Of a stretch of DNA of 64,000 nucleotides, positions 3,311 to 56,697 are shown piece after piece. Both the position numbers and the translations under genes were made by a program. Source of the DNA: an uncultured Gammaproteobacteria bacterium (GTDB taxonomy: Bacteria > Patescibacteriota > Patescibacteriia > VMEV01 > CAYQCH01); assembly GCA_964352335.1 (NCBI GenBank), contig CAYGRO010000003.1, positions 24,798 to 88,797 on the forward strand, in the 5' to 3' direction. Every line of letters starts with the position of its first letter. The first letter of the stretch is position 1. The notes below the pieces were generated by a model that had not been told where the DNA came from, made no database searches, and was given only the letters and a program-made list of their open reading frames with translations.

Positions 3311-3350
3311 TGATTCGAATAGACGAATTAATACTAATCTACGAATTTAC
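3311..3350. promoter_or_regulatory. Copy of the conserved AATCTACGAAT-containing ~35-nt motif, 5-45 nt upstream of the rmlA-like start codon
   Basis: The minus-sense sequence attcgtagattagtattaattcgtctattcgaatca matches copies at 20503-20590, 29771-29805, 30133-30175 and 30829-30866. Confidence 0.4.
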
Positions 3351-3395
3351 TGCGAATATACGAATAAAACCACAGAAAAGGCCTAATTGTCAACT

Positions 3396-17624: not shown

Positions 17625-17726
17625 CTCTCCCCAGCCCTCTCCTTAGCAAGGAGAGGGAGGAACAGAGATCGAGTACTTCCCCCTCCTAGAGTAGGAGGGG
17701 GTTAGGGGGAGGTAACATTACCCCCC
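17625..17726. repeat. GC-rich palindromic intergenic repeat (ccctctccttagcaaggagaggg ... ccccctcctagagtaggaggggg ttaggggg) overlapping the 3' end of secA
   Basis: About 40 nt are nearly identical to the copy at 21688-21786. Confidence 0.55.
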
Positions 17727-20459
17727 ATGACATTTTTTATACTTCTTCCCACTTCCACAAGGACAAGCATCATTTCTTCCTACTTTTTCAAAGTCATGCC
17801 CACCTGAATCGTGGTTTTGTTCTTTAGACGCTTCTCCAACAACGGCACCACCGGCAGAAGTTTTAGCAGGAGCAGAGAGAATTCCTCCTCCAGCTTGTTC
17901 AAGAATAGATTTTTGATCTTGTAATTGGGCTCGTACTTTAAAGATTGAGTACACAACCGTTTTTTGAATTTCTTTAAGCAAACCATTAAAGATTCTAAAC
18001 CCTTCTTTTTTATATTCCACCAATGGATCTCGTTGACCATACCCACGTAAACCAATACTCCCTCGTAAGGCATCCATGGTTTCTAAATGACCAACCCAAA
18101 GGTTATCGATTGTTCGGAGTAATAATTGTTTTTCTACATCTCTAAAGGCGCCTTCTTCGCCAACGGTTTCTTCTAGATGTTTTTCTACTTGAACGTAGAT
18201 AGCTTCTGCAATCCCATACAAATACGCGACTAATTTTTGTGCAATTTCATTCAGCACAATAGCTGATTCTGTTTTTTCTGGATTTGGCAATGCTTTGATT
18301 TTATCTATAGATAATTGTTGTTCTGCAGATAATGGATACATGGTTAAAACTGTTTCGTAAATTTCTTTTAGATTCCAGTTTGATGGATCATTATCTTGTG
18401 TATGCGCAGAAACAACGTCTTCTAGTTCCATGCGAATCATTTCTAAAACACGATTACGAGTAATTTCTGGTTTTTCTTGTGCATCGAGCAAAATTTCTCG
18501 GCGTTTTGCATAAATAACGGTCCGTTGTTTATTTAATACATCGTCGTATTGCACAACATGTTTACGGATATCGTAATTATTTGTTTCTACCCGTTTTTGC
18601 GCTTCTGTTAATGACCGAGAAACCATTTTATTTTCGATTGGCATATCTTCTGGAAGTTTGAGCGTTTCCATCATTTTACGCATACGGTCAGAAGCAAAAA
18701 TACGCATTAATTCGTCTTCCATAGACACATAAAACTGAGACATCCCAGGATCTCCTTGTCGCCCTGCACGTCCACGAAGCTGGTTATCGATACGTCGAGA
18801 TTCATGTCGTTCTGTCCCAATTACATGTAAACCACCAAGAGCTAAAACTTCTTTTTCTGTTAACTCATCTTTTGGCGCACCACCTAAAATAATGTCTACA
18901 CCACGACCTGCCATATTCGTAGCAATCGTCACAGAACCTGGTTTACCAGCTTGTGAAATAATAGAAGCTTCTCGTTCATGGTTTTTTGCATTCAACATTT
19001 CAAAAGGAATCCCTTCTTTCGTTAACAAACCAGAAAGCAATTCGTTTTTTTCAATAGAAGCTGTACCAACCAAAACTGGTTTCTTTTCTTCATGAAGCCG
19101 TTTAATTTCTTTTACAACAGCATTATATTTTCCAACCTCATTTTTATAAACACGGTCAACTTTATCGTCTCTTTGAATTGGTTTATTGGTTGGAATCACG
19201 GTTGTTTCTAAACCATAAATTTGTCTAAACTCTTCTGCCTCTGTCACAGCAGTACCTGTCATTCCTCCTAGTTTTTCGTAGATTCTAAAATAATTTTGGA
19301 AAGTAATCGTCGCAAGCGTTTTACTTTCTCTTTGGATTTGTACATTTTCTTTGGCTTCAATTGCTTGGTGCAAACCTTGAGAATAGCGTCGTCCTTCCAT
19401 TAAACGACCAGTGAATTCATCTACAATTAATACTTCTCCATTGCGAACAACATAATCTTTATCCTTTTTAAAGAGAGATTCTGCTCGTAAAGCATTTTCT
19501 AAATGGTGAATAGATTTAATACTTTTTTGTACATACAAATTCTCTACACCTAATGATTTTTCTACCTTTGCAATACCAGCCTCCGTTAAAGATGCAGCCC
19601 TTCGTTTTTCGTCTAGATTATAGTCTGTATCTTTAATCAATGTTTTAGCAATTTTAGCAAAGGTATAATATTCATCTGTAGACTCGGCATCTGGGGCGGA
19701 AATAATTAAAGGAGTTCTCGCTTCATCAATTAAAATACTGTCTACTTCGTCGACAATGGCATAAGATAAATCTCTTTGTACCATTCGCTCTGCTGTTGGA
19801 GCCATATTGTCACGCAAGTAGTCAAAACCAAATTCATTATTGGTTCCATAGGTTACATCAGCATTATAAGCTTCCTTTCGTTCACATTTTTTTAAATAAA
19901 CCTCTTCTATTTCTACTCCTTGATCTCTTACTTCATCGTCAGCTTCTGTCGCTCCATCTTCTGAATAAATATATGCTTGCGCATGCCCGATTGCCCCAAC
20001 CGTCATTCCTAGTTTTGCAAAAATTTGTCCCATCCATTCAGCATCACGTTTTGCCAAGTAATCATTGACAGTAACAAGGTGAACACCTTTTCCTGTAAGC
20101 GCATTTAAGTAAACAGGCGATGTTGAAGTTAATGTTTTTCCTTCCCCTGTTCTCATTTCGGCTACTTCTCCACGATGCAAAACAATCCCACCAACAAGCT
20201 GAACGTCATAATGACGTTGACCAAGCGTTCGTTTAGCAGCTTCCCGAACGGTTGCAAAAGCTTCTGGGAGTAGATCATCTAATGTTTCACCCTTTGCTAA
20301 ACGTTCTTTAAACTCTACAGTCTTTCCTTTTAATTGTTCATCAGAAAGAGCAATAAAATCTGGTTCGAGACCATTAATTTTATCGATAGTTGGTTGTAAT
20401 TTTTTAACGTATTTTTTATTAACATCTCCAACAAATACTTTTTCTAGTAATTTCTTCAT
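17718..20459 (-). CDS. secA: Preprotein translocase ATPase SecA
   Basis: 913 aa with DEAD-motor motifs and the C-terminal zinc-binding tail CPCGSGKKYKKCHG. Confidence 0.95.
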   Translation of the reverse strand: MKKLLEKVFVGDVNKKYVKKLQPTIDKINGLEPDFIALSDEQLKGKTVEFKERLAKGETLDDLLPEAFATVREAAKRTLGQRHYDVQLVGGIVLHRGEVAEMRTGEGKTLTSTSPVYLNALTGKGVHLVTVNDYLAKRDAEWMGQIFAKLGMTVGAIGHAQAYIYSEDGATEADDEVRDQGVEIEEVYLKKCERKEAYNADVTYGTNNEFGFDYLRDNMAPTAERMVQRDLSYAIVDEVDSILIDEARTPLIISAPDAESTDEYYTFAKIAKTLIKDTDYNLDEKRRAASLTEAGIAKVEKSLGVENLYVQKSIKSIHHLENALRAESLFKKDKDYVVRNGEVLIVDEFTGRLMEGRRYSQGLHQAIEAKENVQIQRESKTLATITFQNYFRIYEKLGGMTGTAVTEAEEFRQIYGLETTVIPTNKPIQRDDKVDRVYKNEVGKYNAVVKEIKRLHEEKKPVLVGTASIEKNELLSGLLTKEGIPFEMLNAKNHEREASIISQAGKPGSVTIATNMAGRGVDIILGGAPKDELTEKEVLALGGLHVIGTERHESRRIDNQLRGRAGRQGDPGMSQFYVSMEDELMRIFASDRMRKMMETLKLPEDMPIENKMVSRSLTEAQKRVETNNYDIRKHVVQYDDVLNKQRTVIYAKRREILLDAQEKPEITRNRVLEMIRMELEDVVSAHTQDNDPSNWNLKEIYETVLTMYPLSAEQQLSIDKIKALPNPEKTESAIVLNEIAQKLVAYLYGIAEAIYVQVEKHLEETVGEEGAFRDVEKQLLLRTIDNLWVGHLETMDALRGSIGLRGYGQRDPLVEYKKEGFRIFNGLLKEIQKTVVYSIFKVRAQLQDQKSILEQAGGGILSAPAKTSAGGAVVGEASKEQNHDSGGHDFEKVGRNDACPCGSGKKYKKCHGG

Positions 20460-20502
20460 AAATAGGGTTGGTCGATAAAGACTGAGTTTATGGATTTAGT
20501 GT

Positions 20503-20590
20503 GATGCCAATCTACGAATGCATTCTAATCTGCGAATAATGACAAATCTACGAATAGCTTATTCGTAGATTCGTTTACATTTGTAGATTC
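20503..20590. promoter_or_regulatory. Cluster of AATCTACGAAT motif copies upstream of secA, including a 12-bp perfect inverted repeat separated by 3 nt (aatctacgaata-gct-tattcgtagatt, 20545-20571)
   Basis: Read directly from the sequence. It shares the 29-mer GATTAG(A/T)AT(G/A)CATTCG(T/C)AGATTGGCATCA with the lexA upstream region. Confidence 0.45.
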
Positions 20591-20684
20591 AAGTAAATAG
20601 ACCAGCAACTGCGCTTGTTTTAAGCCAAATTAAAGTGGATTTAGTTTAGCAGAACACGGCTATTGGTTCAATTATGACCTAATT

Positions 20685-21677
20685 TTAGACAAATTGTACT
20701 TCCTCTTCTAAGTCTATACCGTAAACAGCTTTTGCTTCTTTCTTAATGATTTCGGTATATTCTTTAACGGCTTGGGCATTACCTTTTCCGGTATTTACTA
20801 AAAAGTTCGCATGTTTTTCCGAAACCTTGATCCCTTTATAGGGTTCTTTTTGTTTATACCCTAATTGTTCAATAATCCATCCAGCGGGAACTTTTCCATT
20901 TTTAATAAAATCTGGATGTTCTTTTTTAATATCAGTAAAAAATTGTTTCGTTGGTTCACCAGTACTAGCAGATGATAATTTTTCTTCACCTGGAATAAGT
21001 TCGATGTTTTTGAATAAGCACCCAGCACAAAGTTCTCCCATTGGTTGGTCGGCAAACTTTTTTTTGAGCATGTCTTTTACTCGCTGTTGTGCTTCGTCAG
21101 CATCAGCAGGCTCAAGTTCAAATGTTGCTTCTAAAACAAGTTCTTTTCCTTGAGTGTCTTTAATGGCACTTGAACGATAGCGAAAATTTAATTGATCATT
21201 CGTTCTTGTTTCAATCGTTTCGCTTGTGGCAACTTGAGCCGAAACCAATGTATCTTTTACTTCCCCACCAAATGCCCCTGCATTTCCTCGTACAGCCCCA
21301 CCAACCGTCCCTGGAACAGCAATACACCATTCTAAACCAGTTAAACCAGCTTTAGCCGTTTCTTGCGCAAGCTTTGCTAATGGCAAACCAGCTTCTGCGA
21401 TGACAGTAGACCCATTAATTTTCAAATCACGATTTCTTGGTCGGATAACAATTCCTTTGATCCCTTCATCTGGCAATAAAACATTAGCCCCTCCACCTAA
21501 AATAAAATAGGGCAAGTTATTTTTTATACAAAACTGAAATACTTCTACTAATTCTTCATTCGTTTTAGGTTCAACAAAAATTTCAGCTGGACCACCAATT
21601 TTAAAGGTTGAATATTTAGAAAGAGGTTCATTCACTTTTAAAATATCGGCAAATTGTTGTTTGAATTTTTCGTACAT
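20685..21677 (-). CDS. murB: UDP-N-acetylenolpyruvoylglucosamine reductase
   Basis: FAD-binding domain (KIGGPAEIFVEP...) and the MurB C-terminal domain. The start was trimmed to MYEKFKQ. Confidence 0.85.
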   Translation of the reverse strand: MYEKFKQQFADILKVNEPLSKYSTFKIGGPAEIFVEPKTNEELVEVFQFCIKNNLPYFILGGGANVLLPDEGIKGIVIRPRNRDLKINGSTVIAEAGLPLAKLAQETAKAGLTGLEWCIAVPGTVGGAVRGNAGAFGGEVKDTLVSAQVATSETIETRTNDQLNFRYRSSAIKDTQGKELVLEATFELEPADADEAQQRVKDMLKKKFADQPMGELCAGCLFKNIELIPGEEKLSSASTGEPTKQFFTDIKKEHPDFIKNGKVPAGWIIEQLGYKQKEPYKGIKVSEKHANFLVNTGKGNAQAVKEYTEIIKKEAKAVYGIDLEEEVQFV

Positions 21678-21687
21678 AATATTTTTG

Positions 21688-21786
21688 ACATTACCCCCTC
21701 CCAACCTCCCCCTTAGCAAAGGGGAGGAGGAATAACTTTCATGTTCTTCCCCCTCCTAGCATAGGAGGGGGCTAGGGGGTGGTAAA
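21688..21786. repeat. GC-rich palindromic intergenic repeat between the murG-murC stop and the murB start
   Basis: Contains cctcccccttagcaaaggggaggagg and ccccctcctagcataggaggggg ctagggggtggta. It is a near-copy of the 17625-17726 element. Confidence 0.55.
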
Positions 21787-21789
21787 AGA

Positions 21790-24288
21790 TCATCCTAATT
21801 CCTCTGCTAATCGATAAATATCTCCTGCGCCCATCATTAAGACCACATCATTGGGCTCGATAAGTGAATTTAACGCTGTTTTTGTTTCTTGTAAAGAACC
21901 AGAGGCAATCACTTTTGGACAACGACCACGCTTTTTAATGGCATCTACAAGCATTTGAGCATTCATTTCTTCTTTGGTAATTGTTTCTCGGCCTGCAACA
22001 GCATGAATATCTGGAATAACGGTGACATCAGCAAGGTCAAATGAAGCAACAAAATCATCAAATAATGCTTGAGTTCTATGTCTTGTATGCGCTTGAAAAA
22101 CAGCAATCAACCGTTGACCAGGATAAAATTCTTTTGCTCCTTTAATTGTGGCATGAACCGCTGTTGGGTGGTGAGCATAATCACTAATAATCACAGCTTG
22201 TTTATATTGCCCCAGAATTTGAAACCGTCGCCATGTTCCTTTAAAGCTAGATAAAGCATCACAAATTTCTTGTGGCTTATGCCCGACAATGGATAAAGCA
22301 ACAGCAATAGATGCTAATGCATTTTCAATATTAAATGTTCCTGGCAGTGGAAATGAGCAAGTCGCAACTTTGTCATTATATTGATAAAGAGATAATTCTT
22401 GTTTCTGATCTTTTACCACTACTTCTTTTAACCATAAGTCATTCTCTTTTTTAGACGAGAAAGCGAAAATATTTTTTCCTGATAAATCTAGTTTTTTTGT
22501 TTGTGTATCTTCATCGTTTATTACAAGAAGCCCGTCCTCTGGTAATTTATCTACCATTTTCTGAAAAGCGGCATAATAGTTTTCTTCTGTTTTATAATAA
22601 TCTAAATGATCAGGAACAATATTTGTAATAACAAGTACATCTGGATCTATTTCTAAAAAATGTTCTTTAAACTCATCTCCTTCTACAACTAAAATATCAC
22701 TTTTCCCTGCTCTAAAATTACATTTCCAATCGTTTACAACACTTCCAACCATTGCAGAAGGGTCACATCCCATTTGGATTAAGATATGTGAAATCATCGC
22801 TGTCGTTGTTGTTTTTCCTTTATTCCCTGCAACAACAATCGTATGATAATCCTTTGATAATTGCCCAACCACTTGAAAATTAGTCATCATTTTTATCCCT
22901 AGCTCTTTTGCTTTTACAAGCTCTGGATTATCTAATGGAATAGCATCATTATAGACAATAAGATCAATATCTTCTGTCACATTAGTTGATTCATGCCCCT
23001 TAAGCACAATTGCTCCAGCTTGAGCTAATTGATCTGTAATCATATTTTGTGACAAATCTGAACCTGAAACAACTTTATGATGATGCAAAAAGAAATAGGC
23101 AATATACGAAATACCAATCCCACCAATACCAACGAAATGAACTTTTTTAATGGTTGAAAGATCTAATTGTTTATTCACTTCTTCTTGCTCTTCTCCTTCT
23201 TCAATCGCTTCCACCTTTTGATGAGAAAGTGTTTCTACAATGATATTTGCAATTTTGCTACTAGCTTCTTTTTGATAAAAACTATGAATTTTCTTTCCAT
23301 ATTCTGCTAATTTTTCTTTATCTGAAATAATTTTTTTCAATTGAGCCGCAAATAATTGAGGACTCAATGAGGTTTGATCTAAAATATGAGCTGCTTTTTC
23401 ATTCCATAAAATCTCTGCATTATCTTCTTGATGAGAATTTGGAATTGGAATAATAACAGCAGGTTTTTTTAAGGCTGATAATTCTAAAAAGGTCCCAAGC
23501 CCACCCCGTGTAACAACAAGGTCTGCTTTATCATAGGCTTCTGCCATTTCATCTGTTAAAAATTCTTTTTGTCTATAATTATCTGCTTGAATAGTATTTC
23601 CTTTATCTTTTCCTGTGATATGAATAATATTGGCAAATTTTGTCAGCTCCTCTAACCCCCCCCAAACAAATTCATTCAATGCCTGTGCCCCTGTTCCACC
23701 ACCAAAAATGAATAGAACGGGAAGATTATTATCAAAAGTAAAAGCAGTTGTTATTGGGGTAAAAATTTCTTGTCGTACAGGACCACCTGTTACCGTTGTT
23801 TTTCCTTTTTTATAATCTTGCTCAGAAGCAGGAAAAGTCACACTAATCGTTTTGGCGAATGGAGACATTAATTTATTTGCCAAACCTGGACGGATATCTA
23901 ATTGATGTATATGACTTGGAATTTTTTTAAGCCAGGCCATCCAAACCAATGGAACAGCAATAAAGCCACCAGCGGTAATAATCGCATTTGGTTTTAATTC
24001 ATTCAGTAATTTCCATGCCTTAATACAAGCGTAAATAAGTAAAAATGGCGAAACAATATTTCGTAGGCTAAAAAAACGATCCAACTTAACCATTGGTAAT
24101 GTATAAAAACTAATCTGCTTTTGTGCTATTAATTTTCTTTCTGGACCATTTTTTGTCCCTACCCAAAGATAAGACCACTTAGAATATGATGACTTAAGCT
24201 CTTCGTATACAGCTAAAAGCGGTGTTACAGGACCAATTGTTCCACCACCTGCAAATAGAATTGTTTTTTTATCTTCATTCATAAGCAA
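21790..24288 (-). CDS. murG-murC: Fused MurG (N-terminal glycosyltransferase) and MurC (C-terminal UDP-N-acetylmuramate--L-alanine ligase) protein
   Basis: Residues ~1-360 carry the MurG glycine-rich loop (FAGGGTIGPVTP) and GT-B fold. Residues ~375-832 carry MurC motifs (HFVGIGGIGISYIA...; VAGNKGKTTTTAMISHIL). Confidence 0.85.
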   Translation of the reverse strand: MLMNEDKKTILFAGGGTIGPVTPLLAVYEELKSSYSKWSYLWVGTKNGPERKLIAQKQISFYTLPMVKLDRFFSLRNIVSPFLLIYACIKAWKLLNELKPNAIITAGGFIAVPLVWMAWLKKIPSHIHQLDIRPGLANKLMSPFAKTISVTFPASEQDYKKGKTTVTGGPVRQEIFTPITTAFTFDNNLPVLFIFGGGTGAQALNEFVWGGLEELTKFANIIHITGKDKGNTIQADNYRQKEFLTDEMAEAYDKADLVVTRGGLGTFLELSALKKPAVIIPIPNSHQEDNAEILWNEKAAHILDQTSLSPQLFAAQLKKIISDKEKLAEYGKKIHSFYQKEASSKIANIIVETLSHQKVEAIEEGEEQEEVNKQLDLSTIKKVHFVGIGGIGISYIAYFFLHHHKVVSGSDLSQNMITDQLAQAGAIVLKGHESTNVTEDIDLIVYNDAIPLDNPELVKAKELGIKMMTNFQVVGQLSKDYHTIVVAGNKGKTTTTAMISHILIQMGCDPSAMVGSVVNDWKCNFRAGKSDILVVEGDEFKEHFLEIDPDVLVITNIVPDHLDYYKTEENYYAAFQKMVDKLPEDGLLVINDEDTQTKKLDLSGKNIFAFSSKKENDLWLKEVVVKDQKQELSLYQYNDKVATCSFPLPGTFNIENALASIAVALSIVGHKPQEICDALSSFKGTWRRFQILGQYKQAVIISDYAHHPTAVHATIKGAKEFYPGQRLIAVFQAHTRHRTQALFDDFVASFDLADVTVIPDIHAVAGRETITKEEMNAQMLVDAIKKRGRCPKVIASGSLQETKTALNSLIEPNDVVLMMGAGDIYRLAEELG

Positions 24289-27792: not shown

Positions 27793-29064
27793 CTAAGTAA
27801 ACTGATGAGGCTCTTTAAACCCTCCAACTTTTCGTTTTAAACGAGTATTTATAATACTTGCTCTTTGTAAAGCCTTTTCTCCATAACGATTATTAATCTT
27901 ATCTTGAGCTTCTAAAAGATTTCTATGACGTCTTTCTATACCTAAATAAGGTAATTGCATTCCATCTTTTTTAAGCATGGTTGCTCCAATACCAATTAAT
28001 CGTACAGGTAAACGAAAGAACCATTTATCTAACAAACTTTTGGCTATTTTATAGATATCATAACCATCATCAACATATGTTTTTAGTGTTTTCCCTTCAC
28101 CTGAACTTGTCATATCTTCCCATCGCAAATGCACCCAAATACGACGAGCTTCGTAACCATCTTTTCTTAGTCTTCTCCCAACCTTTTCTGATAACCGCAA
28201 AAGCATACGATAAACCTCATCTCTATTTACTGTATTTTGACTTAATGTATAGGTATGTCCAATTGATTTAGCAGGAGCCACCTCTTCTACATAGGGAACA
28301 ATTGTATGATCAATCCCTTTACCCATATCTGAAAGCATTTTTCCATTATTAGGCCCAAAGACTCGTTGTAATTCTTCTACAGGATAATTACCTAATTGCC
28401 GTAATGTTCTTATCCCCATATCGAATAAACGAATTTTTAAGCGATTACCAATACCTGGGATATCGGTTAATTCAACCCAATCTAAAACATGTCGTAATTG
28501 ATCTGGCTCAATAACAATTAATCCATCTGGCTTTTTCATGCTAGAAGCTAATTTAGACATCATTCTATTTGGAGCAATACCAATAGAACAAGTTAAAATA
28601 TCACCTATTTCTTCTTTAAGATTTTGTTTCATTTTATGAGCGATATCTATAGCCCCTTGATAATCTTTGACCCAGCCCGTTAAATCCATGAACAACTCAT
28701 CTACACTATAGACTTCTATACGATCACTATATCGCTTACCAATATTGATAAATTTTTGCGTAATTTCTTGGTACTTTGTTGGATCACCGTCTATAAACAT
28801 CAAATGAGGACAAAGTTTTAAGGCCTCTGAGGTCTTCATAGCTGTTTTTAGGCCATAGGCTTTTGCTTCTATAGAACAAGCAACAATAACACTTCTAGAC
28901 GCAGGAGAACCACCAATAGCAATAGGTTTACCACGCAAAAAAGGATTGCATTGCTGTTCAGCCGTTGCAAAATAGGAATTGAAATCGATATGTAATATAC
29001 AATTGACCCCGTATAACTCGTTACCTCGCTTACGGGGCAAGCCATTGATATGTGACATATGCAT
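27793..29064 (-). CDS. dinB: Y-family DNA polymerase (DNA polymerase IV-like)
   Basis: The N-terminal motif ILHIDFNSYFATAEQQCNPFLRGKPIAIGG matches the DinB/UmuC catalytic core. Confidence 0.8.
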   Translation of the reverse strand: MHMSHINGLPRKRGNELYGVNCILHIDFNSYFATAEQQCNPFLRGKPIAIGGSPASRSVIVACSIEAKAYGLKTAMKTSEALKLCPHLMFIDGDPTKYQEITQKFINIGKRYSDRIEVYSVDELFMDLTGWVKDYQGAIDIAHKMKQNLKEEIGDILTCSIGIAPNRMMSKLASSMKKPDGLIVIEPDQLRHVLDWVELTDIPGIGNRLKIRLFDMGIRTLRQLGNYPVEELQRVFGPNNGKMLSDMGKGIDHTIVPYVEEVAPAKSIGHTYTLSQNTVNRDEVYRMLLRLSEKVGRRLRKDGYEARRIWVHLRWEDMTSSGEGKTLKTYVDDGYDIYKIAKSLLDKWFFRLPVRLIGIGATMLKKDGMQLPYLGIERRHRNLLEAQDKINNRYGEKALQRASIINTRLKRKVGGFKEPHQFT

Positions 29065-29186
29065 ACCTCCCCCTAACCCCCTCCTTCACAGGAGGGGGAA
29101 GTATAAACAATTAAATACTACCTTCCCCTCCCATTCGGCTCGAGCTCATGGCCGAGAGCTAATTTAGGAGGGGATTGAGGGGTGGT
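29065..29186. repeat. GC-rich palindromic intergenic repeat (ccccctccttcacaggaggggg ... cccctcccattcggctcgagctcatggccgagagc ... ggaggggattgaggggtggta)
   Basis: Shares the ctcgagctca core with the 10994-11058 copy and the ggagggg-tgaggggtggta arm with the 21688-21786 copy. Confidence 0.55.
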
Positions 29187-29189
29187 ATG

Positions 29190-29438
29190 TTACTCCTGAT
29201 AATGTTCAACAAGATACCACTGCAAACTATCTGTATGAAGCTCTAAACGAAAAAACTCTGTGTCTGTAGCTACAGAGAAAAAATAAATACGTTCTTGACC
29301 ATTATGAGTTGAGTGGACATTTAAAATTTGCTTTATTTGATAAAGATTTTTTTCCCAACGTATTAATTTGGGGTGAACCTTCTTTTCATCAAAAAGAGCA
29401 ACGACTTTAATACGGTCTTGAAATTTTTCGTGAAGCAT
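29190..29438 (-). CDS. Hypothetical 82-aa protein immediately upstream of dinB (possible polymerase accessory factor)
   Basis: ORF only, with no recognisable motif. Its position between lexA and a Y-family polymerase is the sole basis for the functional guess. Confidence 0.3.
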   Translation of the reverse strand: MLHEKFQDRIKVVALFDEKKVHPKLIRWEKNLYQIKQILNVHSTHNGQERIYFFSVATDTEFFRLELHTDSLQWYLVEHYQE

Positions 29439-29439
29439 A

Positions 29440-30174
29440 AAGTTTTATTTAGGGAATAAAAAAACTTGCCAAAATTTAGAAGCAAGTTTTTTTATAAACA
29501 AGGTTACAGGTCGTTTTCAATCATCTTAAGGTTTAAAAGAACAAAAGATAACGTTAGATTGTAAACAACCTGTAAGGTTGTGCCAACAAAGTCGGAATTC
29601 TTGTACCTCTTATTAACTGAAAAAAAGGATTTAAAACAGAGAATAAGTCGGCCAATAAAGAATTTCGGTTCCCCTTCTCTTACCCGTCCCCAAATAAGAA
29701 AAGATGAATTGAATCGTTAGCAAGTGGTGTGGAGATGAAAAGATCTGTAACCTTGTTTATGTATGATGCAAATCTACGAATGAATACTAATCCTCCTTCG
29801 CTCTTGAGGAGCTTCGGCGGACAAGTCTGCAAATATTCAACGAATGAAAGGCATCATACTAATTTACTTTCTATTTCATTGTACGAGAGGAATGAAATAG
29901 GAGCAGTAAGAAACTTAGTGAGTGAAACTATACATCGCAACCTTATCTACAACTCTGCCAAGAAGTTGACGATAAAATGCTTTTGTTTTTCTTTTTTTCA
30001 TATTTTTGTTTTTCTAGACTAGGGTAAGGGCTGAAATAAGCAGCAATAAACAGGACCTGTCCAACCCATGGACCCGGATCATAGAGAATTTAGTTATTAG
30101 CGAGTTAAATTATTTTATGACAGTAGGAGGATGCGAATCTACGAATAAATACTAATCTACAAATATCCTACGAA
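29440..30174. other. 735-bp non-coding region between lexA and the dinB operon, carrying two copies of the AATCTACGAAT motif (29771-29805, 30133-30175) and a conserved hairpin (cgctcttgaggagcttcg); candidate ncRNA or regulatory region
   Basis: No convincing ORF. The 97-aa ORF at 29729-30022 has poor composition. Contains the hairpin aaaaacttgccaaaatttagaagcaagttttttt at 29460-29494 and a second copy of the hairpin motif at 31036-31058. Confidence 0.35.
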
Positions 30175-30801
30175 TTACATTGAGAGTTGTGGTGAAAACG
30201 ACCGGATCAAACCTTTAACAACCCCTTGAATAATTGGATCTCTTACAAATATTGGTGACATGGTTGAATTAGCAGGCTGTAAACGGATTTTATCTTTTTC
30301 TCGGTAGAATCGCTTAAGTGTTGCATAAGCATTATCGAGAAGGGCAACAACGATATCTCCATTTCTTGGACTTGGGTTTCTTTCTACAATTACGTAATCT
30401 CCGTCTAAAATTCCATCTTCAATCATTGATTCTCCTTTTACACGCAAGACATAGGAATTAGCAGGGTCGTCTACAAGAGTAATAGGAACAGCAATCGTTT
30501 CTCTTTCTTCTAAAGCTTCAATTGGACTACCTGCAGTAATGAGACCAACAAATGGTAAAGAAATAGACGGTGGTGCTGGTAGAGCTTTTGGTGTTAATTC
30601 AATAGAGCGAGCTTCATTATGATTTGAGGTGACATACCCTTTTTCTTCTAGAGCTTTCATATACTGATGAATACTTGAAGGAGATGAAAGATCAAATGCT
30701 TCTGCGATTTCTCTATAACTTGGCATATAGCTAAAGTCTTGGTAGAAGCTAATGAGAAAGTCGAGAATTTGCTTTTGTTTCTTTGTTAATTGAGCTGACA
30801 T
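30175..30801 (-). CDS. lexA: LexA repressor (S24 peptidase)
   Basis: N-terminal winged HTH (LTKKQKQILDFLISFYQDFSYMPSYREIAEAF) and the C-terminal Ser/Lys dyad (GESMIEDG ... TLKRF). The start was set to the ATG at 30801 (MSAQL); the ORF-track start is a TTG. Confidence 0.85.
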   Translation of the reverse strand: MSAQLTKKQKQILDFLISFYQDFSYMPSYREIAEAFDLSSPSSIHQYMKALEEKGYVTSNHNEARSIELTPKALPAPPSISLPFVGLITAGSPIEALEERETIAVPITLVDDPANSYVLRVKGESMIEDGILDGDYVIVERNPSPRNGDIVVALLDNAYATLKRFYREKDKIRLQPANSTMSPIFVRDPIIQGVVKGLIRSFSPQLSM

Positions 30802-30828
30802 ATGGTTTATGTTTTTCACAGAGAGGTA

Positions 30829-30866
30829 TGATGCCAATCTGCGAATGTATACTAATCTACAAATAA
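30829..30866. promoter_or_regulatory. Conserved ~35-nt motif (minus-sense GATTAGTATACATTCGCAGATTGGCATCATAC) ending about 24 nt upstream of the lexA ATG; candidate operator or promoter element
   Basis: Near-identical to the copies at 20503-20535 (secA upstream) and 29771-29805. Confidence 0.45.
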
Positions 30867-31089
30867 GATATGAATATTCTTTTTATTGCACCTACTAGAG
30901 TGCTGAGATCTGTTTTTCTTAACTCAATGATTGAATTATATATGAACAAAACATGAACGTCAAGTGTATTTAATTTTGGCTAAGGTAAGATCTATCTCTA
31001 TTTTTGTTCATTTTTTGTTTGTAGTTATCCACAGGTCTTCGCTCCTTGAGGAGCTTCGACCTGCACAGCATTCTTTAACCAAAACAAAA

Positions 31090-31120
31090 TCCCCTTTTTA
31101 AACAAAGGGGATTTTGAAAG
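31090..31120. terminator. Bidirectional hairpin terminator downstream of the DUF378 gene
   Basis: The sequence aaaatcccctttttaaacaaaggggatttt is a perfect palindrome flanked by A/T runs on both sides. Confidence 0.55.
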
Positions 31121-31138
31121 AATAGGGTTTATTCTTTT

Positions 31139-31387
31139 TTACATGCTTTTTTTCATTTCGCAATTTTTACAAGCTCCTTCTTTACATTTTTTGCATTTGC
31201 AACCAACGAGAAGAAGAATACCTGCTAGACCTACTAGTACGTAAACAATACGCATAACTAGCGGCCAAGAACCTAGTAAAGCTTCTACTAAGTTCCATTC
31301 GAAAGCTCCTACGAGCCCCCAATTTAGGGCACCAACGATTACCAATAACCAGGCAATCATATGTCCACTACATCCTTTTTTCATCAT
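31139..31387 (-). CDS. DUF378-family small membrane protein with an unusual Cys/Lys-rich C-terminal tail
   Basis: IAWLLVIVGALNWGLVGAFEWNLVEALLG...IVYVLVGLAGILLL matches the DUF378 pattern. The tail is GCKCKKCKEGACKNCEMKK. Confidence 0.55.
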   Translation of the reverse strand: MMKKGCSGHMIAWLLVIVGALNWGLVGAFEWNLVEALLGSWPLVMRIVYVLVGLAGILLLVGCKCKKCKEGACKNCEMKKSM

Positions 31388-35478: not shown

Positions 35479-35605
35479 GTCTAGCTCCTTTGCCTAAACA
35501 AGGTTTACCATACTTTTTTACAAAATGAAACGAGCTAGCAAGACAGTCCGCTCCCGTGAGGGTGCATAATGTCGAGCTAGCTCGTTGTGGGCCAATTACG
35601 CTGGC

Positions 35606-37277
35606 TTAGGGCTTGTCCCGCGCCGTGACCAGGGTCCGGGCCGGGTCGAAGGTCCCGGGGTTGAGAGGGTCTTCCCTTCGCTCGATTGCGAAGAGAAAGT
35701 CCTCACCCAGAGTGGGCGTCCCGTTCTTGATGAACATGTGGCTATCCCTCACGTCGGAGGAACGACCATCGGGCATGAACGACCACTTGTTGTCGTCCCC
35801 CAAGTCCGCGTCGTTGAATGGCAACGTGTGCCGGCCAACGGGGTTGGTGGGGTCGACGTTCAAGCGCGTCGTGCCTTCGTCGAAGGGGAACGGATGCGTT
35901 CCCAGCTGTTGATTGGCCGCATCGCGACGCACCGTGAGCGTGGGAATGACCATCGTCCCGTAGTCCGGTGGACCGAACCAGGCGGGACTGTCGGTGTTGG
36001 TGCACCGCCAGATCGACGAGACCGTGGGAAGCACCCACTTGCCTGCTGCCACCTGGTACGGAATCCCGAACCGCATGTGGGTGTCCCAGATACGGTTGGT
36101 GATATTGCCGGAGCCGTCCAGTCGAACGTGAACGGTAGGGTTACCGTCGAGCGTACGCGACTTGAACGTCTGCGTCATCCCGTTGAAGGTCGCGGTGATG
36201 GTGAAGAACGAGTTGATCCCGTTACCTCCCTTCACGTCGCGCCCCTCGATGAGGATGGGCTGGCCGTTGAAGTCGTTGACCACCGCGGCCTTGTTGGCAT
36301 CGTCGATGGACATCGTACACTGCGTGGTCACCTCCGCCATGCTCGCGAGGTCATAGACCCGGAACCGACGCCGCTCGCCCATCGAGATGAACGAGGGAGC
36401 CTGGATGACCAGCCCCGTGGAAGGAAGTGTGGGAGAGGAAGTCAGTGTCAGCTCATTGCTGACGATGACCTCATTCCAGCCCTGTTGGACGGTAGAGGTT
36501 CCACCGCCAGCGTCGGTGAAGGTCTTGGTCAAGGTGGTCTGAGCACCGACCCCGAAGGAGCGGACCTTGATCTGCTCGTTGTTGAGACGAGCGACGACCT
36601 TGCCGTCCGCATCGACAGCGGCAGCCCCAGACACGACCTCGTAGAAGACGAGGGTCCTGTTGACCGAGGAGGCGTTGTCGGTGTGAACCAGGTTGGTACC
36701 CAGCTCCGCACCGGTCCCGACGTCGATCTGAGCCGGCGCCGAGAGCGTGATGCTCTTGAGCAAGTCCGTCGTGGGGATGGGGTTGCTCCCACCACCGCCA
36801 CCGCCTCCAGTGGAAGCGACGACGACCTCCACGATGTCGGTGATCCTCTCGGTGATCGTCTTGCCGTTCTTCGTCACGGTGAACGTGATCGAAACCTTGC
36901 TAGGCGCAACGGCCAGGATCAGCCCCGTGTTGTCCAACACCTGAACGATGTTGGGGTCGGAGCTATTGACGGAGTCAGCCGTAACCTTCTCCGTCTGGCT
37001 CGTTCCCTTGAAGATCGCCACGATCTCCAGCTGCTGCTGGGTACCCTGGACGAGCTGGAAGGCACGAGGGGTCACCCCGATACCGACGAACTCGAGGTTC
37101 GCAGTGTTGGGGTTGTTGGTGGGTGGAGTGTTCGTCGGTCCACCACCGCTCGGGTTGGCACCTCCGGAGCCAGCGAGCTGGTTACCCTTGGGGCGACGAC
37201 GCGAGTCGCAGGCCTGGAAGATCATCGCCGAAACGATGACGAAGATGATCAGAAACAGGGTGCGCAATCCACGCATA
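35606..37277 (-). CDS. GC-rich putative lipoprotein with Big_2-like Ig domains, likely horizontally acquired
   Basis: Lipobox at MRGLRTLFLIIFVIVSAMIFQAC, preceded by AGGAGGTG. A Big_2-like segment (VTPRAFQLVQGTQQQLEIVAIFKGTSQTEKVTADSVNSSDPNIVQV) and G/T/S-rich linkers are present. The GC content is far above the flanks. The opposite-strand 576-aa ORF is Arg-rich antisense noise. Confidence 0.5.
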
Positions 37278-37470
37278 GTACACCTCCTAGGTGTTTGAAA
37301 CGTTGTTTGATATGAAAAAAGCACTCGCTAGCAATATGCCAGCAAATACTCTCTCCCCTTCTATTCTCTCATTACAGTGGCGCATTTAAGCGTATAATGA
37401 AAGAATAGATTAAATTACAATAAAAACGGCTTTTTGTCAAGCCATAAAGCCCCTAATAAAATAGCTAATA

Positions 37471-50614: not shown

Positions 50615-53600
50615 ATGAAAAAGCAGAAAAGAAAAAAAGCTGAGAAAGTAGAACACTATTCGCCATCAAAAAAAGAATTTCATCTTCTTTCTAGCCCAGC
50701 ACCCGCTTTTGTCCATTTTTTCCTTAAAATTGGGCATTTTTTCCATTGGTGCTTTCATCTCTTACTTCCAGACAATTTCAAAGAAGACCCAGGTTTTACA
50801 GACCATGTGAAGCTATTTTTCATGACGCGCCACTATTCCTATTTGCGAAAGTTCTTTGTTGTGTGGATGTTTGTCATTACAACAACAATTGGTGTAACCG
50901 GATATAATATTTATCAAGCCAGAGAATTAGGTGCAGCCAATGCCACATTTCCTTTTGATATTTCTGGAAGTTATACATTCGATTCAGCCAGAGTCAATGT
51001 AACCGGAAGTGAGGCAGTGCTTTTATCTGTTGATCAAATTGACAATGACAATACAGCTACAGGTTTTGCCGGAGGAACATTTTCTGACACAAACTTTGCC
51101 ACCAGCCACGTAGGACTTGATGCAACAGGCCTCACAAATGGAACAGGAACTTTTACTTCACGAATAATAAATGCGGGAGGTTCTGTTGCGTGGAATCAAT
51201 TAGACTGGACCCCAGAAAGACCAATTCAAAAAGAACTTCCAAATAATAGCGGAATTGAATCTGCTTATAGCACAGGTAATATGTCTATGACAGGGAATGT
51301 ACTTTTAATGCATTTAAATGAAACAAGTGGAACCATTACTGATTCTTCTGTGAATGGGAATACTGCAACTGGAACAGGTATTACATATGCAAGCCAAGGT
51401 ATCTTTGGAACCGGAATTGATTTAACCGGAAATGGTGATAAAATTGAATCAAGTGCCTTTAATTATGTTTTTGGAACTGAAATTACACTAGCAGGATGGT
51501 TTCGATTTACCGGCCCAGGAACTGGTTCACCTAGAATTTTAGAAATCTCAAGACTTGGTGATTCAAACACACATGCTCTTGCGCCAGACGGAGATGGTTC
51601 TCTGCGTGCTTGGGCTGTTTGTAATAATGGATCGCGTGTAGGCTCTGCCGACGACCCAACAAACTATAACGACGGCCAATGGCATCATTTTGTTTACACA
51701 TATAGTAATCCAACAGGAATTATTTATGTAGATGGCGTGCAAACAGCTACAGCTTCTAATGCATGTGCAAACTTAGATGACGGGAGTGAGCTGATTTTGG
51801 GTGCAATTTCAGATGTAAGTGGTAACTTTACAAATGCACAACATGAATTTGATGGATACATTGATGAAATGGCTGCATTTAACCGAGCATTAACCCCAAC
51901 AGAGGTTCAAGACATCTATTTACGTGGTGCGTTAAGACAACAAATTCAGGTAAGAACATGTGACGATGCTATTTGTGATACAGAAGTTTTTGTAGGATCA
52001 GACGGAACAAATGGAACTTTTTTTAGTGAGCTTTTAAATTCAACAACTGGATTGCCAAGTCTTGCAATGCCCCTCCCTAATAATCAATACTTTCAATACC
52101 AAGTTACTCTAGAAACAGATGACAATGTCACAAACTCTCGATTGAGTAATGTTACTATTGGCCCAAGCCATTTAGACGGAGGTTCACCAACTATTCAAAA
52201 TACCTCTGGTATTGCTTATACATCATCGTTGGATAGCTTTACAGAAACACTCGGAGGTGGGCATACTGGAACAACAACTTATCAACTTTCCAATAATGGT
52301 GCGAATTTCTATTATTTTAACGGAGGTTCATGGTCTCCAGCTGTGAGTTCTGTTCAATCGAATACAGCTGGAATTATTGGTGCGAATATCACAACATTTG
52401 TAAATGACGTAGGTACAGGTAACTTCTTTTTTCGTGCCTTTTTAGGTTCGAATTTAGGGACACAAGTCATTGAATTAGATCAAATTGAACTAACATTTGA
52501 CACAGGTGGAGGAGGCGGTGGTGGAGGGTCTTCGAAAATCTTTTTTCTCCCCCCCAGCGCACCAGGTGATGGGTTTCAAGTTATCATTAACGAAAAAGCA
52601 GAACAAACAACAGACCAAATTGTAGACCTTACATTTAATGCTGGTAATGAAGTATCGCTTGTAGAGTTATCAAATGAACAAAGTTTTATAGAATCAATTA
52701 CTTTAGGACTAACACCAACTATTGAGTGGGATCTTTGTTCTGTGAGTGGAAAACCTGTTTCTAGAGATTGCCCAGATGGCGAATATACTGTCTATGCAAA
52801 TTTTTTAACATCTTTAGGACAACCTCCATCTCCAATAGTTTCTGACACAATCACATTAGGAGAAGAAGAAGAAGAAGTTGTTGAAGAAGAACCAGTGGTA
52901 ACTGAACCAGAAACCGAAACTGAAGAAACTCCCGATGAAGAAGTCATTATAGAACAAGAACAAAACGAACCTCCTATTACACCAGCCCCCTCTGAACCAG
53001 AAGAAACAACTGAACAACCCGAAGATGAAACTCAAGAACCATCTGTAATCGAGGAAGAGATTGTAGAAGAAAACCAACAAGAACCTACTCCAATTCAACC
53101 TTCACCAGAACAAACACCCCCGCAACCACCTATAAACCAGAACGACCCCACAACCGCTCCGCCTTCAGAAGTAAATGAAGGGCAAATCATTCAAACAGTC
53201 ACACAAGAAATTGGAACAAATAACTATTTACTAACTGTTTCTACAGGAGAAGAACTAGAACAGAATGAAAAAGTATTTGTACAATTTTTGTCTGGAGCTC
53301 TTGCTGGTCAAAGCATTGTTTTAGATGAATACGTTGCAAATGACCAAGAAATTTTCTTTTACACCCCACTCCAAGTAAACCCAAGTCCTGGTGATAAAGT
53401 AAAAGTATCTGGAGGAACTGTGTTTAAGCAAGAAACATTTGTCTCACCAAAAACAGAATCAACTGTTTCAGACTTTAAAGTGTCGGCACCTGAAAAACCT
53501 TCTCTTCTTGCGCTACAAATTGTAATAGCTATTGGCTTGTTTTTAGGCCTGTTTATTCTCTTTTCATTGTGGAAACAAAATACTGCCCTTACAACACTCA

Positions 53601-53653
53601 TTGAACATGAACACGCGAACTTATACCATAAAGGGAAACACGGTAAGCACTAA
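50615..53653 (+). CDS. Large surface protein, paralog 1 of 3 (N-terminal TM, conserved beta domain, LamG/concanavalin-like lectin domain, acidic P/E/T-rich linker, C-terminal domain and C-terminal TM anchor)
   Basis: 1012 aa. LamG signature FDGYIDEMAAFNRALTPTEVQDIYLRG. Gly-run GGGGGGGS. C-terminal helix LLALQIVIAIGLFLGLFILF followed by a basic tail. Confidence 0.6.
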   Translation: MKKQKRKKAEKVEHYSPSKKEFHLLSSPAPAFVHFFLKIGHFFHWCFHLLLPDNFKEDPGFTDHVKLFFMTRHYSYLRKFFVVWMFVITTTIGVTGYNIYQARELGAANATFPFDISGSYTFDSARVNVTGSEAVLLSVDQIDNDNTATGFAGGTFSDTNFATSHVGLDATGLTNGTGTFTSRIINAGGSVAWNQLDWTPERPIQKELPNNSGIESAYSTGNMSMTGNVLLMHLNETSGTITDSSVNGNTATGTGITYASQGIFGTGIDLTGNGDKIESSAFNYVFGTEITLAGWFRFTGPGTGSPRILEISRLGDSNTHALAPDGDGSLRAWAVCNNGSRVGSADDPTNYNDGQWHHFVYTYSNPTGIIYVDGVQTATASNACANLDDGSELILGAISDVSGNFTNAQHEFDGYIDEMAAFNRALTPTEVQDIYLRGALRQQIQVRTCDDAICDTEVFVGSDGTNGTFFSELLNSTTGLPSLAMPLPNNQYFQYQVTLETDDNVTNSRLSNVTIGPSHLDGGSPTIQNTSGIAYTSSLDSFTETLGGGHTGTTTYQLSNNGANFYYFNGGSWSPAVSSVQSNTAGIIGANITTFVNDVGTGNFFFRAFLGSNLGTQVIELDQIELTFDTGGGGGGGGSSKIFFLPPSAPGDGFQVIINEKAEQTTDQIVDLTFNAGNEVSLVELSNEQSFIESITLGLTPTIEWDLCSVSGKPVSRDCPDGEYTVYANFLTSLGQPPSPIVSDTITLGEEEEEVVEEEPVVTEPETETEETPDEEVIIEQEQNEPPITPAPSEPEETTEQPEDETQEPSVIEEEIVEENQQEPTPIQPSPEQTPPQPPINQNDPTTAPPSEVNEGQIIQTVTQEIGTNNYLLTVSTGEELEQNEKVFVQFLSGALAGQSIVLDEYVANDQEIFFYTPLQVNPSPGDKVKVSGGTVFKQETFVSPKTESTVSDFKVSAPEKPSLLALQIVIAIGLFLGLFILFSLWKQNTALTTLIEHEHANLYHKGKHGKH

Positions 53654-56600
53654 TTGTATATGAAGAAAAAACATCATAGACCAAATCATAACCACCCTGT
53701 CATTGCCTTTTTACTAAAGACAAGTCATTTTTTTCATTGGTCTTTTCATGTTTTACTTCCCGACTTTATCTCAAAAGTACCTAGTGCCAAATTAAACAGG
53801 CTTCTTTTCTTAAAAACTCGTTACTTTTCTAAGATGAGAACTCTTGTTATCGGGTGGCTTATTATGAGCATTAGTATTTTAAGTGTCACAGGATATCAAT
53901 TTGCAAAAGCTCCAATCATAAAAGCAGCCAATACTACCTTCCCTTTTGACCTAGCAGGAAACTATACTTTTGACACAGACAGAATAGCAATTGGATCAAG
54001 TCTTGCAACGCTTCCGTCGGTCGACCAAATAGATGACGACAATACTGCTACGGGTTTTGCAGGAGGGACGTTTAGTGACACCGCGTTTTCTGGAGGCTTC
54101 TTGCAATTAGACGCAACTGGACTTACAAATACCACAGGGCTTTTTACTTCAAGAGTTATAGACGCAGGTGGTGACGTAGCATGGTCGTCAGTGGACTGGA
54201 CACCTCAACGCCCCTATCAAAAAGATCTTCCCGACTCAGGATCAGCTGAAACGGCGTATACTGCTGGGAATATCGACATGAATGGTAATCTTGCATTACT
54301 TCATGCAGACGAAACAGCTGGTGCAACAACGATTCTAGATTCATCTGGTAATGCGAATAACTTCTCTTGTACTACTTGCCCTGCTTCTGGAGGAACGGGC
54401 CGATTCAATACAACCCTAGAATTCAATGGAGGCGAAACACTTGAGGACGCAGATGGAGAAACCTATTTAAACGGGCTTACTGCATTCTCATTGGGTTTTT
54501 GGGTCAAATCCGATGTCGTTGGAACTGACAGAGGCTTTTTTATCGGAACAGCCCCAAGTGGAAGTGATGACGGACTTACTATTCGTTACGACGATGCGGG
54601 CGCAAACGGAGGAGGAAATGATGTCATTAAAGCAGGAATAACAACAACCACAGGAACAACACAAGTCGAAAGCTCTACAAATATTCAAACAACAGACTGG
54701 CAACATATTGTTCTCACATGGACCTCTGGCAGTGCTTTATCACTGTATGTAAACGGCCAACTGGACACACCAACCAGTGCAGGAGCGACCGTAGGAGGAG
54801 CCATTAGCACATTAGACCGAGCAATACTTGGGAGAGGTGGAAAAGACACAGCAGCAGGAGCCGGGTGGTTAGGACTAATCGATGAATTCTCGGTTTTTGA
54901 TAGGGCACTCGCCCCAGCAGAAATTTCTGATCATTATCTTCGGGGTGCGACAAGACTTGGAATTCAAGTTCGTTCTTGTGACGATGCAATTTGTGACATA
55001 GAACCATTTATTGGTCCAGACGGAACAGCAAGCACCTTTTACGGTGAAGGCTTAAATACAACAAATGCACTCCCAAGCACAACGACACTTTCTTCTATCG
55101 TAAACAACCGTTACTTTCAGTATCAAATAGTATTAGACTCAGATGATTCGATTACAACACCTCAATCTTCTTCATTTTCTTTTGCCCCATCTCATTTAGA
55201 TGCAGGTGGCCCAACTATTCAAAATGCAACAGGAATAACATATCAAACAATCGATGGATTTGTAGAAACTCTTGGGGGAGGAAATACTGGCACAACAAGA
55301 TACCAAGTCTCAAATAATGGAACAAATTTTTATTACTTTAATGGATTAAATTGGGTAACGGCTCTCTCTGCTGCACAAAGTAATCCTGCTGGTGTTATTA
55401 ATAGTAATGCAACAACCATTGCAACTGATATTGGAACTGGAGACTTCTTTTTTCGAGCTTTTCTAAATTCAGCACTCGGACAACAAATTGTAGAACTAGA
55501 TGAAATTGAAGTTATTTTTGACACAAGCTCAAATAATAACGGGGGTGGTGGTAGCTCATTACTCTTCTTTAGCCAACCAGTCCCCCCAACCAATGGATTT
55601 GCATTAACAATAAACGAAGAAGCAACAGTAACAGAATCACCTCTTGTTTCATTAGGTTTTAATGCTGGCTCAGATATTTCCCTTGTTGAAATTTCTAATG
55701 AACCAAATTTTTTAGAATCAATTACATTAACCTACTCAAATCCACTTTCTTGGAATCTCTGCTCCTCTAAAGGAGAAGCACAAACTGAATGTATAGATGG
55801 TGAATACACCGTTTATGCAAAATTCTATAAATCATTTGGTCAAGCCCCTTCGGTCGTTGTTCAGGATACTATTGCCCTTCTCTCCCTCGAGAACATAGAT
55901 GCTATTGATAAAAACACTGAAGAGGAAAACCCTACTGAAGAAAAATTATCACCAATTGAAATCCCCGAAGACAATACACCACCAACAGAAGAACCTCTCA
56001 TTGTTGATGCTGAAAACCAAGAAGAAAATGAAACCATTCTCTCTCCCCCATCAGAAATAGTTGAACAAGAACAAAAGAAAGAACAGGAATTATTACAACC
56101 AGAGTCTACACAAGAAAAAGAATTAAATCTTCCCACCTCACCACAAACGCCTTCGGAACAACCAAGCCAACCAATTCCTCAAAAGACTCAAACTCTGCCT
56201 CAAACACAAGTTGTACAACAAGTATCACAAGAAATTGGCACTTCTAACTTTTTGATTAGTACAACATTACCTGCTGGGTTTGATGAAAACGAATCTTTTG
56301 TTATTTCTTTTACCTCTGGTGCCCTTGCTGGTCAAAGCGTGCTTATTGATAAATATGTAGCAAATGACCAAGGTATTCTTCTTTTTACAGAGCTTAAAAC
56401 CTCACCAACTATTGGAGATTTGTTTCAGCTCTTTTCTGGAAGATTTTATGAAGAAAAAACATTTGTCTCTCCACAACTTCCCCCCTCTTCACCTGTTATA
56501 ATTCAATATGACAGCTTTACTGACCAAAGATCATTTTTCTGGTTTCTCTTTGGGTTGCTTATTGTAACTATCACAGGTTTTGGACTCCTTGTACTTGTGC

Positions 56601-56692: not shown

Positions 56693-56697
56693 TTTCT

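Follow-up and report, generated by a model that had tools for sequence, protein, structure and literature searches.

A 64-kb stretch of DNA (hereafter the window) carries a short repeated motif immediately upstream of lexA, and the question raised by this locus is what kind of element the motif represents. The earlier note, made from the sequence itself, had described five copies and had offered three readings of them: a novel LexA (SOS) operator, a promoter element or a MITE-like element. The window has a GC content of ca. 35%, and its LexA and SecA are nearest to Patescibacteria (CPR) proteins, being about 65% and 59% identical, respectively, to their homologues in Falkow-, Uhr- and Magasanikbacteria. 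The CPR have tiny genomes, with almost no characterised cis-regulatory or mobile DNA. As argued below, the motif is probably the terminal arm of a mini-cassette built around a GxxExxY nuclease gene, of which the copies in the window would be gene-less derivatives.

The 11-mer AATCTACGAAT, with at most one mismatch, was found 15 times in the window compared to an expected 1.77, a count reached by none of 100 shuffled sequences. When the window was scanned with a 16-nt position weight matrix (PWM) built from other genomes, strong matches were confined to five clusters (3313-3365, 20504-20594, 29766-29781, 30131-30164 and 30831-30864). Together, these counts and the scan confirm that the motif occurs as five intergenic clusters, and the reported spacing of the direct repeats, about 18 bp, was confirmed as well: on the gene strand the repeat unit reads ATTCGTAGATT-RGNAT-NN with a period of 18 bp, and in the source genome GCATCAYAC comes after the last unit of each array. 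All five copies, listed in Table 1 together with the neighboring genes, whose assignments were borne out by Pfam (lexA, secA, dinB, rmlA-like), are oriented alike, toward the downstream gene. Four of them are solo arms and one is a back-to-back array, all without a nuclease gene.

Table 1. Copies of the repeat, neighboring genes and lexA promoter elements in the 64-kb window
Feature	Coordinates	Strand	Description
NTP_transferase (rmlA-like) gene	2224-3303	-	Pfam
Copy A	3311-3365	-	Solo arm, three units; ~9 nt from its end to the ATG of the NTP-transferase (rmlA-like) gene
secA	17718-20459	-	Pfam
Copy B	20499-20594	-	Back-to-back array: three units toward secA, two toward murB
murB	20685-21719	-	Pfam
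dinB	27793-29064	-	Pfam
Copy C	29761-29859	-	Array with 9-bp inverted tips GTATGATGC...GCATCATAC
Copy D	30126-30175	-	Solo arm, two units and a degenerate third; begins at the lexA stop codon
lexA	30175-30801	-	Pfam
Copy E (motif of the earlier note)	30826-30866	-	Solo arm: units ATTTGTAGATTAGTAT and ATTCGCAGATTGGCAT, tip GCATCATAC
Conserved lexA promoter	30935-30963	-	TTGACG-N17-TATAAT; not part of the repeat
Probable LexA box	30944-30958	-	GTTCATGTTTTGTTC; GTTC-N7-GTTC in the promoter spacer

Copy B, the center of which is a 12-bp perfect palindrome, lies between the conserved extended -10 of secA (TGCTAAACT, 20643-20651) and the secA ATG. The inverted repeat reported upstream of secA, perfect over 12 bp and with a loop of 3 nt, was found as described, AATCTACGAATA-GCT-TATTCGTAGATT. 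On the same strand (-), ACTAAATCCA occurs twice, at 20634-20644 just after the secA extended -10 and at 20495-20503 right after the array; this pair could be an insertion-linked duplication, or could be due to chance. Copy C had been placed at 29771-29805; its existence stands, but its extent is larger (Table 1), and a GC-rich hairpin repeat of 31 nt, at approximately 29795-29826, interrupts one of its units. The GC-rich hairpin, CGAAGCTCCTCAAG(G)AGCGAAG, is a second small repeat, found at 29803-29816 inside the copy C unit and again at 31045-31058 (-), and a sequence related to it is present at the equivalent place upstream of lexA in locus L024. Copy E is situated in the 5' leader of lexA, downstream of the conserved lexA promoter.

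The lexA promoter was compared among orthologous loci with different degrees of LexA identity to the window (L023, 96%; L018, 90%; L024, 85%; L019/L020, 83%; L021/L022, 81%). A promoter of the form TTGAC(G/T)-N17-TATA(A/C)(A/T)T is common to the lexA loci of the relatives and the window. In all six orthologue loci its spacer carries GTTC-N7-GTTC at the same position (in L021 as the variant TTTC-N7-GTTC), and the only GTTC-N7-GTTC of the entire 64-kb window is the one in this spacer. A second site, an inverted (A/G)AAC-N7-GAAC about 55 bp upstream (31006-31020, -), is also present in 6/6 orthologue loci. The GTTC-N7-GTTC direct repeat is one of the LexA motif types listed in PMC8565304, where it is cited for the Alphaproteobacteria, and it is matched by the box inside the lexA promoter of the window. 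We regard this box as the likely true operator of LexA in this CPR clade, belonging to the direct-repeat type of the Alphaproteobacteria. The motif reported by the earlier note differs from it in sequence and in place: its unit, ATTC...GNAT, recurs every 18 bp, and it is not a conserved feature of lexA loci.

That the repeat is nevertheless a LexA operator of a new direct-repeat type is suggested by its surroundings: of the five copies in the window, three lie around lexA; arrays are found in the lexA leader of L019 and L024 as well as upstream of dinB in L019 and of uvrA in L009; and TTCGTA..TT is common to the unit and the first half of the conserved box (GTTCGTATTTTGTTC). We consider this extremely improbable. 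It is GTTC-N7-GTTC, and not the repeat, that is conserved in the promoter spacer, and the repeat is missing from the lexA loci with 96%, 90% and 81% identical LexA. The 18-bp period does not seem to fit the known spacing of LexA dimers. Across the CPR loci described below, the 54 genes downstream of the motif are mostly housekeeping genes and show no enrichment of SOS functions: no SOS family appears among the 25 Pfam families listed for arm-facing genes, and uvrA appears once. On a Roizmanbacteria contig, arrays occupy the successive intergenic spacers before rpsU, dnaX and ybaB. Both the enrichment upstream of recA, uvrA, dinB and lexA and the footprinting in related genomes, proposed by the earlier note as checks, have thus turned out against an SOS operator. 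The comparison tells a look-alike repeat apart from GTTC-N7-GTTC, the likely SOS operator in this lineage.

Several additional features of the lexA region were observed. The sequence TGTGGATAA at 31025-31033 (-), upstream of the lexA promoter, is kept in every orthologue locus examined; we take it to be the complement of the DnaA-box consensus TTATCCACA. Just downstream of lexA, at 29915-30001 (-), there is a conserved 28-codon ORF, MKKRKTKAFYRQLLGRVVDKVAMYSFTH, also found in L018, L019, L021, L023, L024 and L089. It may form one LexA-controlled operon with lexA, dinB and a conserved 82-aa ORF (29190-29438). The leader of the latter contains a conserved stem-loop with an invariant loop, CTTTTCTTAT-TTGGGGACGGG-TAAGAGAAG (29674-29703, -), which has no match in Rfam and is a candidate cis-regulatory RNA.

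Alignment of the lexA loci, and of two secA loci (SecA identity: L089, 86%; L090, 75%), revealed that the copies are polymorphic at orthologous sites, as is typical of MITEs, in the case of copies B to E. Copy E was not found at the orthologous site in L023, L018 and L021/L022, and falls in a segment of about 105 nt that is missing from these loci. Copy D is a clean insertion of about 47 nt relative to L023 and L024; in the lexA-dinB gap, the flanks of which align, it was not found in L018, L019 and L021, and copy C was not found in L023, L018, L019 and L021. Copy B was not found upstream of secA in L089 and L090, and no array was found in the 22.7 kb of L089 that are syntenic with the window. 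Altogether, 44 kb of syntenic DNA of close relatives contain no strong array, versus four in the window. Judged from these alignments, at least four of the five window copies are gains that followed the split from the nearest sampled relatives. The repeat is absent from the lexA and secA sites of the nearest relatives and is therefore not a conserved operator. Each gained copy separates either a resident promoter from the start codon or two cistrons from each other. Three lineages, the window, L019 and L024, have arrays in the lexA leader, and this recurrence in L019 and L024 exceeds chance expectation. The arrays concerned (L019, 9898-9969 and 12860-12875; L024, 769-878 and 2347-2362) are degenerate or back-to-back, and in the 20.6 kb of L019 PWM matches of at least 9 bits were limited to the lexA leader and to a position immediately before dinB.

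A search with a 22-nt pattern, for which we estimate about four chance matches, yielded 17 loci in GTDB one-per-species genomes and 63 in metagenomes, and no match in viral contigs. The genome hosts are Parcubacteria, Roizman-, Moran-, Falkow- and Zambryskiibacteria or unclassified MAGs, with a GC content of 33-50%. In these 80 loci (536 kb), 263 of 278 units (95%) lie outside ORFs, though ORFs make up 86% of the DNA. Most often the units are arranged as <<>>, a pair of two-unit arms that face outward and lie 0-22 nt apart. The 54 distinct genes that an arm faces gave 66 Pfam families, among them tRNA synthetases, ribosomal proteins, dnaX and yidC. The repeat family is thus common to several CPR phyla, turns over between near-identical genomes and reaches the leaders of essential genes. 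In a literature search on the motif sequence, on CPR promoter motifs and on GxxExxY/PF13366, no description of the repeat or of the cassette architecture was found. Comparison with the sites of IHF, Fur, ArgR, LytTR and sigma-54, with ops/JUMPstart, the DnaA box and integron attC, and with DNA uptake sequences gave no match.

The data on these loci come close to the third reading, that of a MITE-like element. Inverted tips, <<>> arrays of 70-95 bp, a high copy number and the lack of coding capacity were all observed. This reading falls short in that none of the 26 complete arrays is flanked by a target-site duplication. The gene associated with the arrays (see below) encodes a nuclease, which is a candidate for the enzyme of an autonomous form. 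Near-identity at the free positions is not seen among the copies of one genome, a divergence that would fit long-lived selected sites better than a recent burst of transposition.

The arms were also found around a gene. In several loci, outward-facing arms approximately 400 bp apart enclose an ORF of 131-133 aa that belongs to PF13366 (PDDEXK_3) / TIGR04256 ("GxxExxY protein"). The gene is enclosed in L017, L034, L066 and L053, a frame-shifted pseudogene in L080 and a remnant in L015. Of the nine PF13366 genes in all of the loci collected, seven adjoin arrays, and five of these do so on both sides. The ORF ends inside a unit (...TCG TAG, as in AAT TCG TAG, or TCG TAA) in L034, L047 and L080, while in L066 the stop codon lies a few bases before one. 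The start of the ORF, ATG(A/G)CAACGAATAA, is kept in compact arrays with a center of 21-22 nt and in the solo arm before uvrA in L009, and is consistent with what an internal deletion would leave. The proteins of L017, L034 and L066 are only about 50% identical in alignment. As an unbiased test, two homologues were picked by protein sequence alone, one from Doudnabacteria (P0286, L091) and one from Parcubacteria (P0282, L096); both genes proved to be flanked by two-unit arms on each side. No GxxExxY gene is present in the 64-kb window.

The same architecture was encountered outside the CPR. On the Bernardetia (Bacteroidota) plasmid NZ_CP147018.1 (L101), a GxxExxY gene lies between 28-nt inverted arms (1436-1466 and 1857-1886), each consisting of two repeats exactly 18 bp apart, the sequence of which (CACAGAGAnAA) is unrelated to the CPR unit. 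A PF13366 gene between outward-facing two-unit arms, which is how we define a mini-cassette, is therefore found in L017, L034, L066, L091, L096 and the Bernardetia locus. A Treponema homologue is flanked by inverted repeats of about 25 nt, and for a Persicobacter homologue no clear flanking inverted repeat was seen. The catalytic D...ExK residues are invariant in the aligned GxxExxY proteins, and a confident AlphaFold model (pLDDT 92) displays a minimal PD-(D/E)XK fold, the structural neighbors of which are only generic (Cas4, Hjc, PspGI). The family has been described as being of unknown function and as having undergone multiple horizontal transfers, with no demonstrated transposase activity (PMC3424549).

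We propose that a full copy of the element is a cassette of about 0.5 kb, in which two outward arms surround the GxxExxY/PDDEXK_3 gene of about 130 aa. Each arm consists of an inner unit (often ATTCGTTGATT), an outer unit ATTCGTAGATT and a tip RGNATCAT; the nuclease gene has its stop codon in the first unit of the arm downstream. Copies without the gene, either as 70-95-bp arrays of back-to-back arms or as solo arms, far outnumber full copies and fill intergenic DNA. The nuclease is predicted to recognise the 18-bp units, two per arm, and may spread or maintain the arms by an action resembling transposition, homing or the REPIN-RAYT system. This would provide a testable function for the large, widespread but uncharacterised GxxExxY family: the recognition of paired 18-bp repeats that flank its own gene. 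The broader proposition, that GxxExxY proteins in general are the nucleases of undescribed inverted-repeat cassettes of about 0.5 kb, the arms of which proliferate without the gene and donate promoters to secA, ileS, dnaX and lexA, is put forward more tentatively, as a possibility that we hold somewhat less likely to be right than wrong.

The second reading, that of a promoter element, was considered in view of the ordinary promoters of the window, which are canonical TTGACA-type promoters or an extended -10 of the form TGnTAnAAT. Since these are canonical, the repeat was rejected as the housekeeping promoter consensus. Several window genes have their ATG 6 nt after the -10 hexamer, and leaderless mRNAs seem to be common in the source genome, as far as such spacing can tell. 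TGnTAnAAT was seen exactly 6 nt before an ATG upstream of, for example, 50615 (+), 43797 (-) and 43215 (-).

Within an arm, T(T/A)GATT could act as a -35 element and TAGNAT, at the end of the next unit, as a -10 element of an outward sigma-70-like promoter. The spacer between the two is 17 bp because the period is 18 bp; 17 bp is the optimum spacer of sigma-70 promoters. Start codons cluster 11-13 nt after the unit, i.e. 6-8 nt after TAGNAT, which is a leaderless spacing. In a second class of genes (rmlB genes, at a distance of 28-30), the outer TAGATT is positioned as a -35 for a downstream TGnTAnAAT. An A at -11 was found in 30 of 50 start-facing arms compared to 12 of 37 end-facing ones (Fisher p = 0.017). 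In the window, copy B (TAGATT-N17-TAGAAT) and copy A (TATATT-N18-TAGTAT) provide the best candidates; in copies C (TGGCAT), D (TCGCAT) and E (TTGCAT) the outermost -10-like hexamer has no A at -11. Several downstream genes have canonical promoters of their own, at a variable distance from the array. The promoter reading agrees with the sigma-70-like hexamers and with a statistical signal of modest size, while the mixed orientation of the arms speaks against a pure promoter. The arms may act as portable promoters. If an arm does carry an outward promoter, its insertion upstream of a gene would keep or add transcription, and streamlined genomes could obtain portable promoters in this way.

One alternative to the cassette is that the arrays are cis-regulatory elements of the host, their units serving as operators or promoter modules for a conserved CPR DNA-binding protein or an alternative sigma factor with control over many housekeeping genes, and that the GxxExxY genes merely sit in these sites or home into them. 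The host arrays could have been there first, with the nuclease gene homing into them as a passenger. The units combine invariant positions with randomised free ones, like selected binding sites. Arrays lie near start codons and are depleted in convergent regions, of which they occupy 9%, as against 22% of tandem and 21% of divergent intergenic regions. The bias toward A at -11 in start-facing arms, the absence of a target-site duplication and the common orientation of the five window copies toward the downstream gene point in the same direction. A regulon, however, should be common to relatives with 86-96% identical proteins, and the distribution is patchy, as the 44 kb of syntenic DNA without a strong array demonstrate. 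Half of the arms point to gene ends: in other genomes, solo arms do so as often as they point to gene starts, and among the unidirectional clusters that adjoin a gene the share is 37 of 63 (67 clusters in all). The distance to the apparent core promoter ranges from overlap to more than 40 nt. The polarity of alpha and beta arms with respect to gene direction (about six versus three independent cases, counted by eye) was not significant. Finally, the two-by-18-bp arms of the Bacteroidota GxxExxY gene, of a different sequence, indicate that the architecture is tied to the nuclease rather than to a host factor of the CPR. On balance, a host array strikes us as unlikely, yet it deserves to be kept in mind.

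An additional scenario is that the element acts as an RNA or single-stranded DNA hairpin, the back-to-back arrays being terminators, processing sites or mRNA stabilisers of the REP/BIME kind between co-directional genes. Strong folds were obtained for copy B (z = -4.8) and for L016 (z = -8.8), as would be expected of any inverted repeat; in tandem gene pairs, arrays lie 4-12 nt behind the stop codon, and some are followed by runs of T. No significant fold was obtained for the solo arms (z = -1.8), to which four of the five copies in the window belong, and the AT-rich stems fail a terminator scan. The two arms of one array agree at 28.6 of 37 positions compared to 30.4 of 37 for arms of different arrays; they are no more alike than others, which argues against compensatory change and therefore against selection for pairing, and no hairpin covariation between arms was found. 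An Rfam scan (the window and L001-L017 at gathering thresholds, 29000-31200 at E<=1) returned only tRNAs and sub-threshold noise; it placed no known RNA next to an array, and none of nine tRNAs lies within 200 nt of one. A function as a hairpin thus appears quite improbable.

Among known systems, the proposed cassette with its gene-less arms resembles REPIN-RAYT more than a classical MITE, in that there is no duplication, copies appear long-lived and a small nuclease gene lies within the repeats. As with REP sequences and REPINs, the repeats are short and intergenic, mostly in inverted pairs, with many gene-less copies that are not burst-like and no target-site duplication, and a small dedicated nuclease-type gene is flanked by inverted repeats. 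The enclosed gene differs: it encodes a PD-(D/E)XK protein of about 130 aa (PF13366/TIGR04256) and not an HUH Y1 enzyme (IS200/IS605-like TnpA-REP). Moreover, an arm consists of two direct 18-bp units, whereas REP is a single palindrome with a GTAG head, and the host range here is the CPR, with analogues in Bacteroidota and Spirochaetota. If it is true that the nuclease mobilises or maintains the arms, this would be a REPIN-RAYT-like system based on a different enzyme fold.

MITEs of the Correia type are small, gene-less elements of intergenic DNA and 5' leaders that vary in presence between close relatives and can provide adjacent genes with promoters; the Correia elements of Neisseria, to which they are confined, are 100-155 bp long and duplicate TA. 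The small gene-less inverted-repeat elements described here share the location in intergenic DNA and leaders and the polymorphism, but show no duplication, have composite arms and possess a candidate autonomous form with a nuclease, not a DDE transposase. Directly repeated protein-binding sites at each end, the inner and outer ones differing slightly, are known from the TnsB sites of Tn7, from the ends of Mu and from the IR-DR of Sleeping Beauty. The repeated sub-sites in each arm recall this design, as do the tips, 5'-TGATGCC...GGCATCA-3' (TG...CA); in contrast to those elements, there is no DDE transposase and no target-site duplication, and the cassette measures about 0.5 kb with a single tiny ORF.

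Three other regions of the window deserve mention. Between 34000 and 38000 the GC content is 45-51% compared to 35% for the genome, the only match is a weak one to Big_2, with no rRNA, and long ORFs overlap on opposite strands (35585-37315, +; 35606-37324, -); this segment may be foreign DNA or low-complexity DNA of a surface protein. At 50615-59733 (+), three paralogous ORFs of 1011-1012 aa each are arranged in tandem. A single ORF of 832 aa at 21790-24288 (-) is a murG-murC fusion; the two genes are separate in L019/L090 and fused in L089 too.
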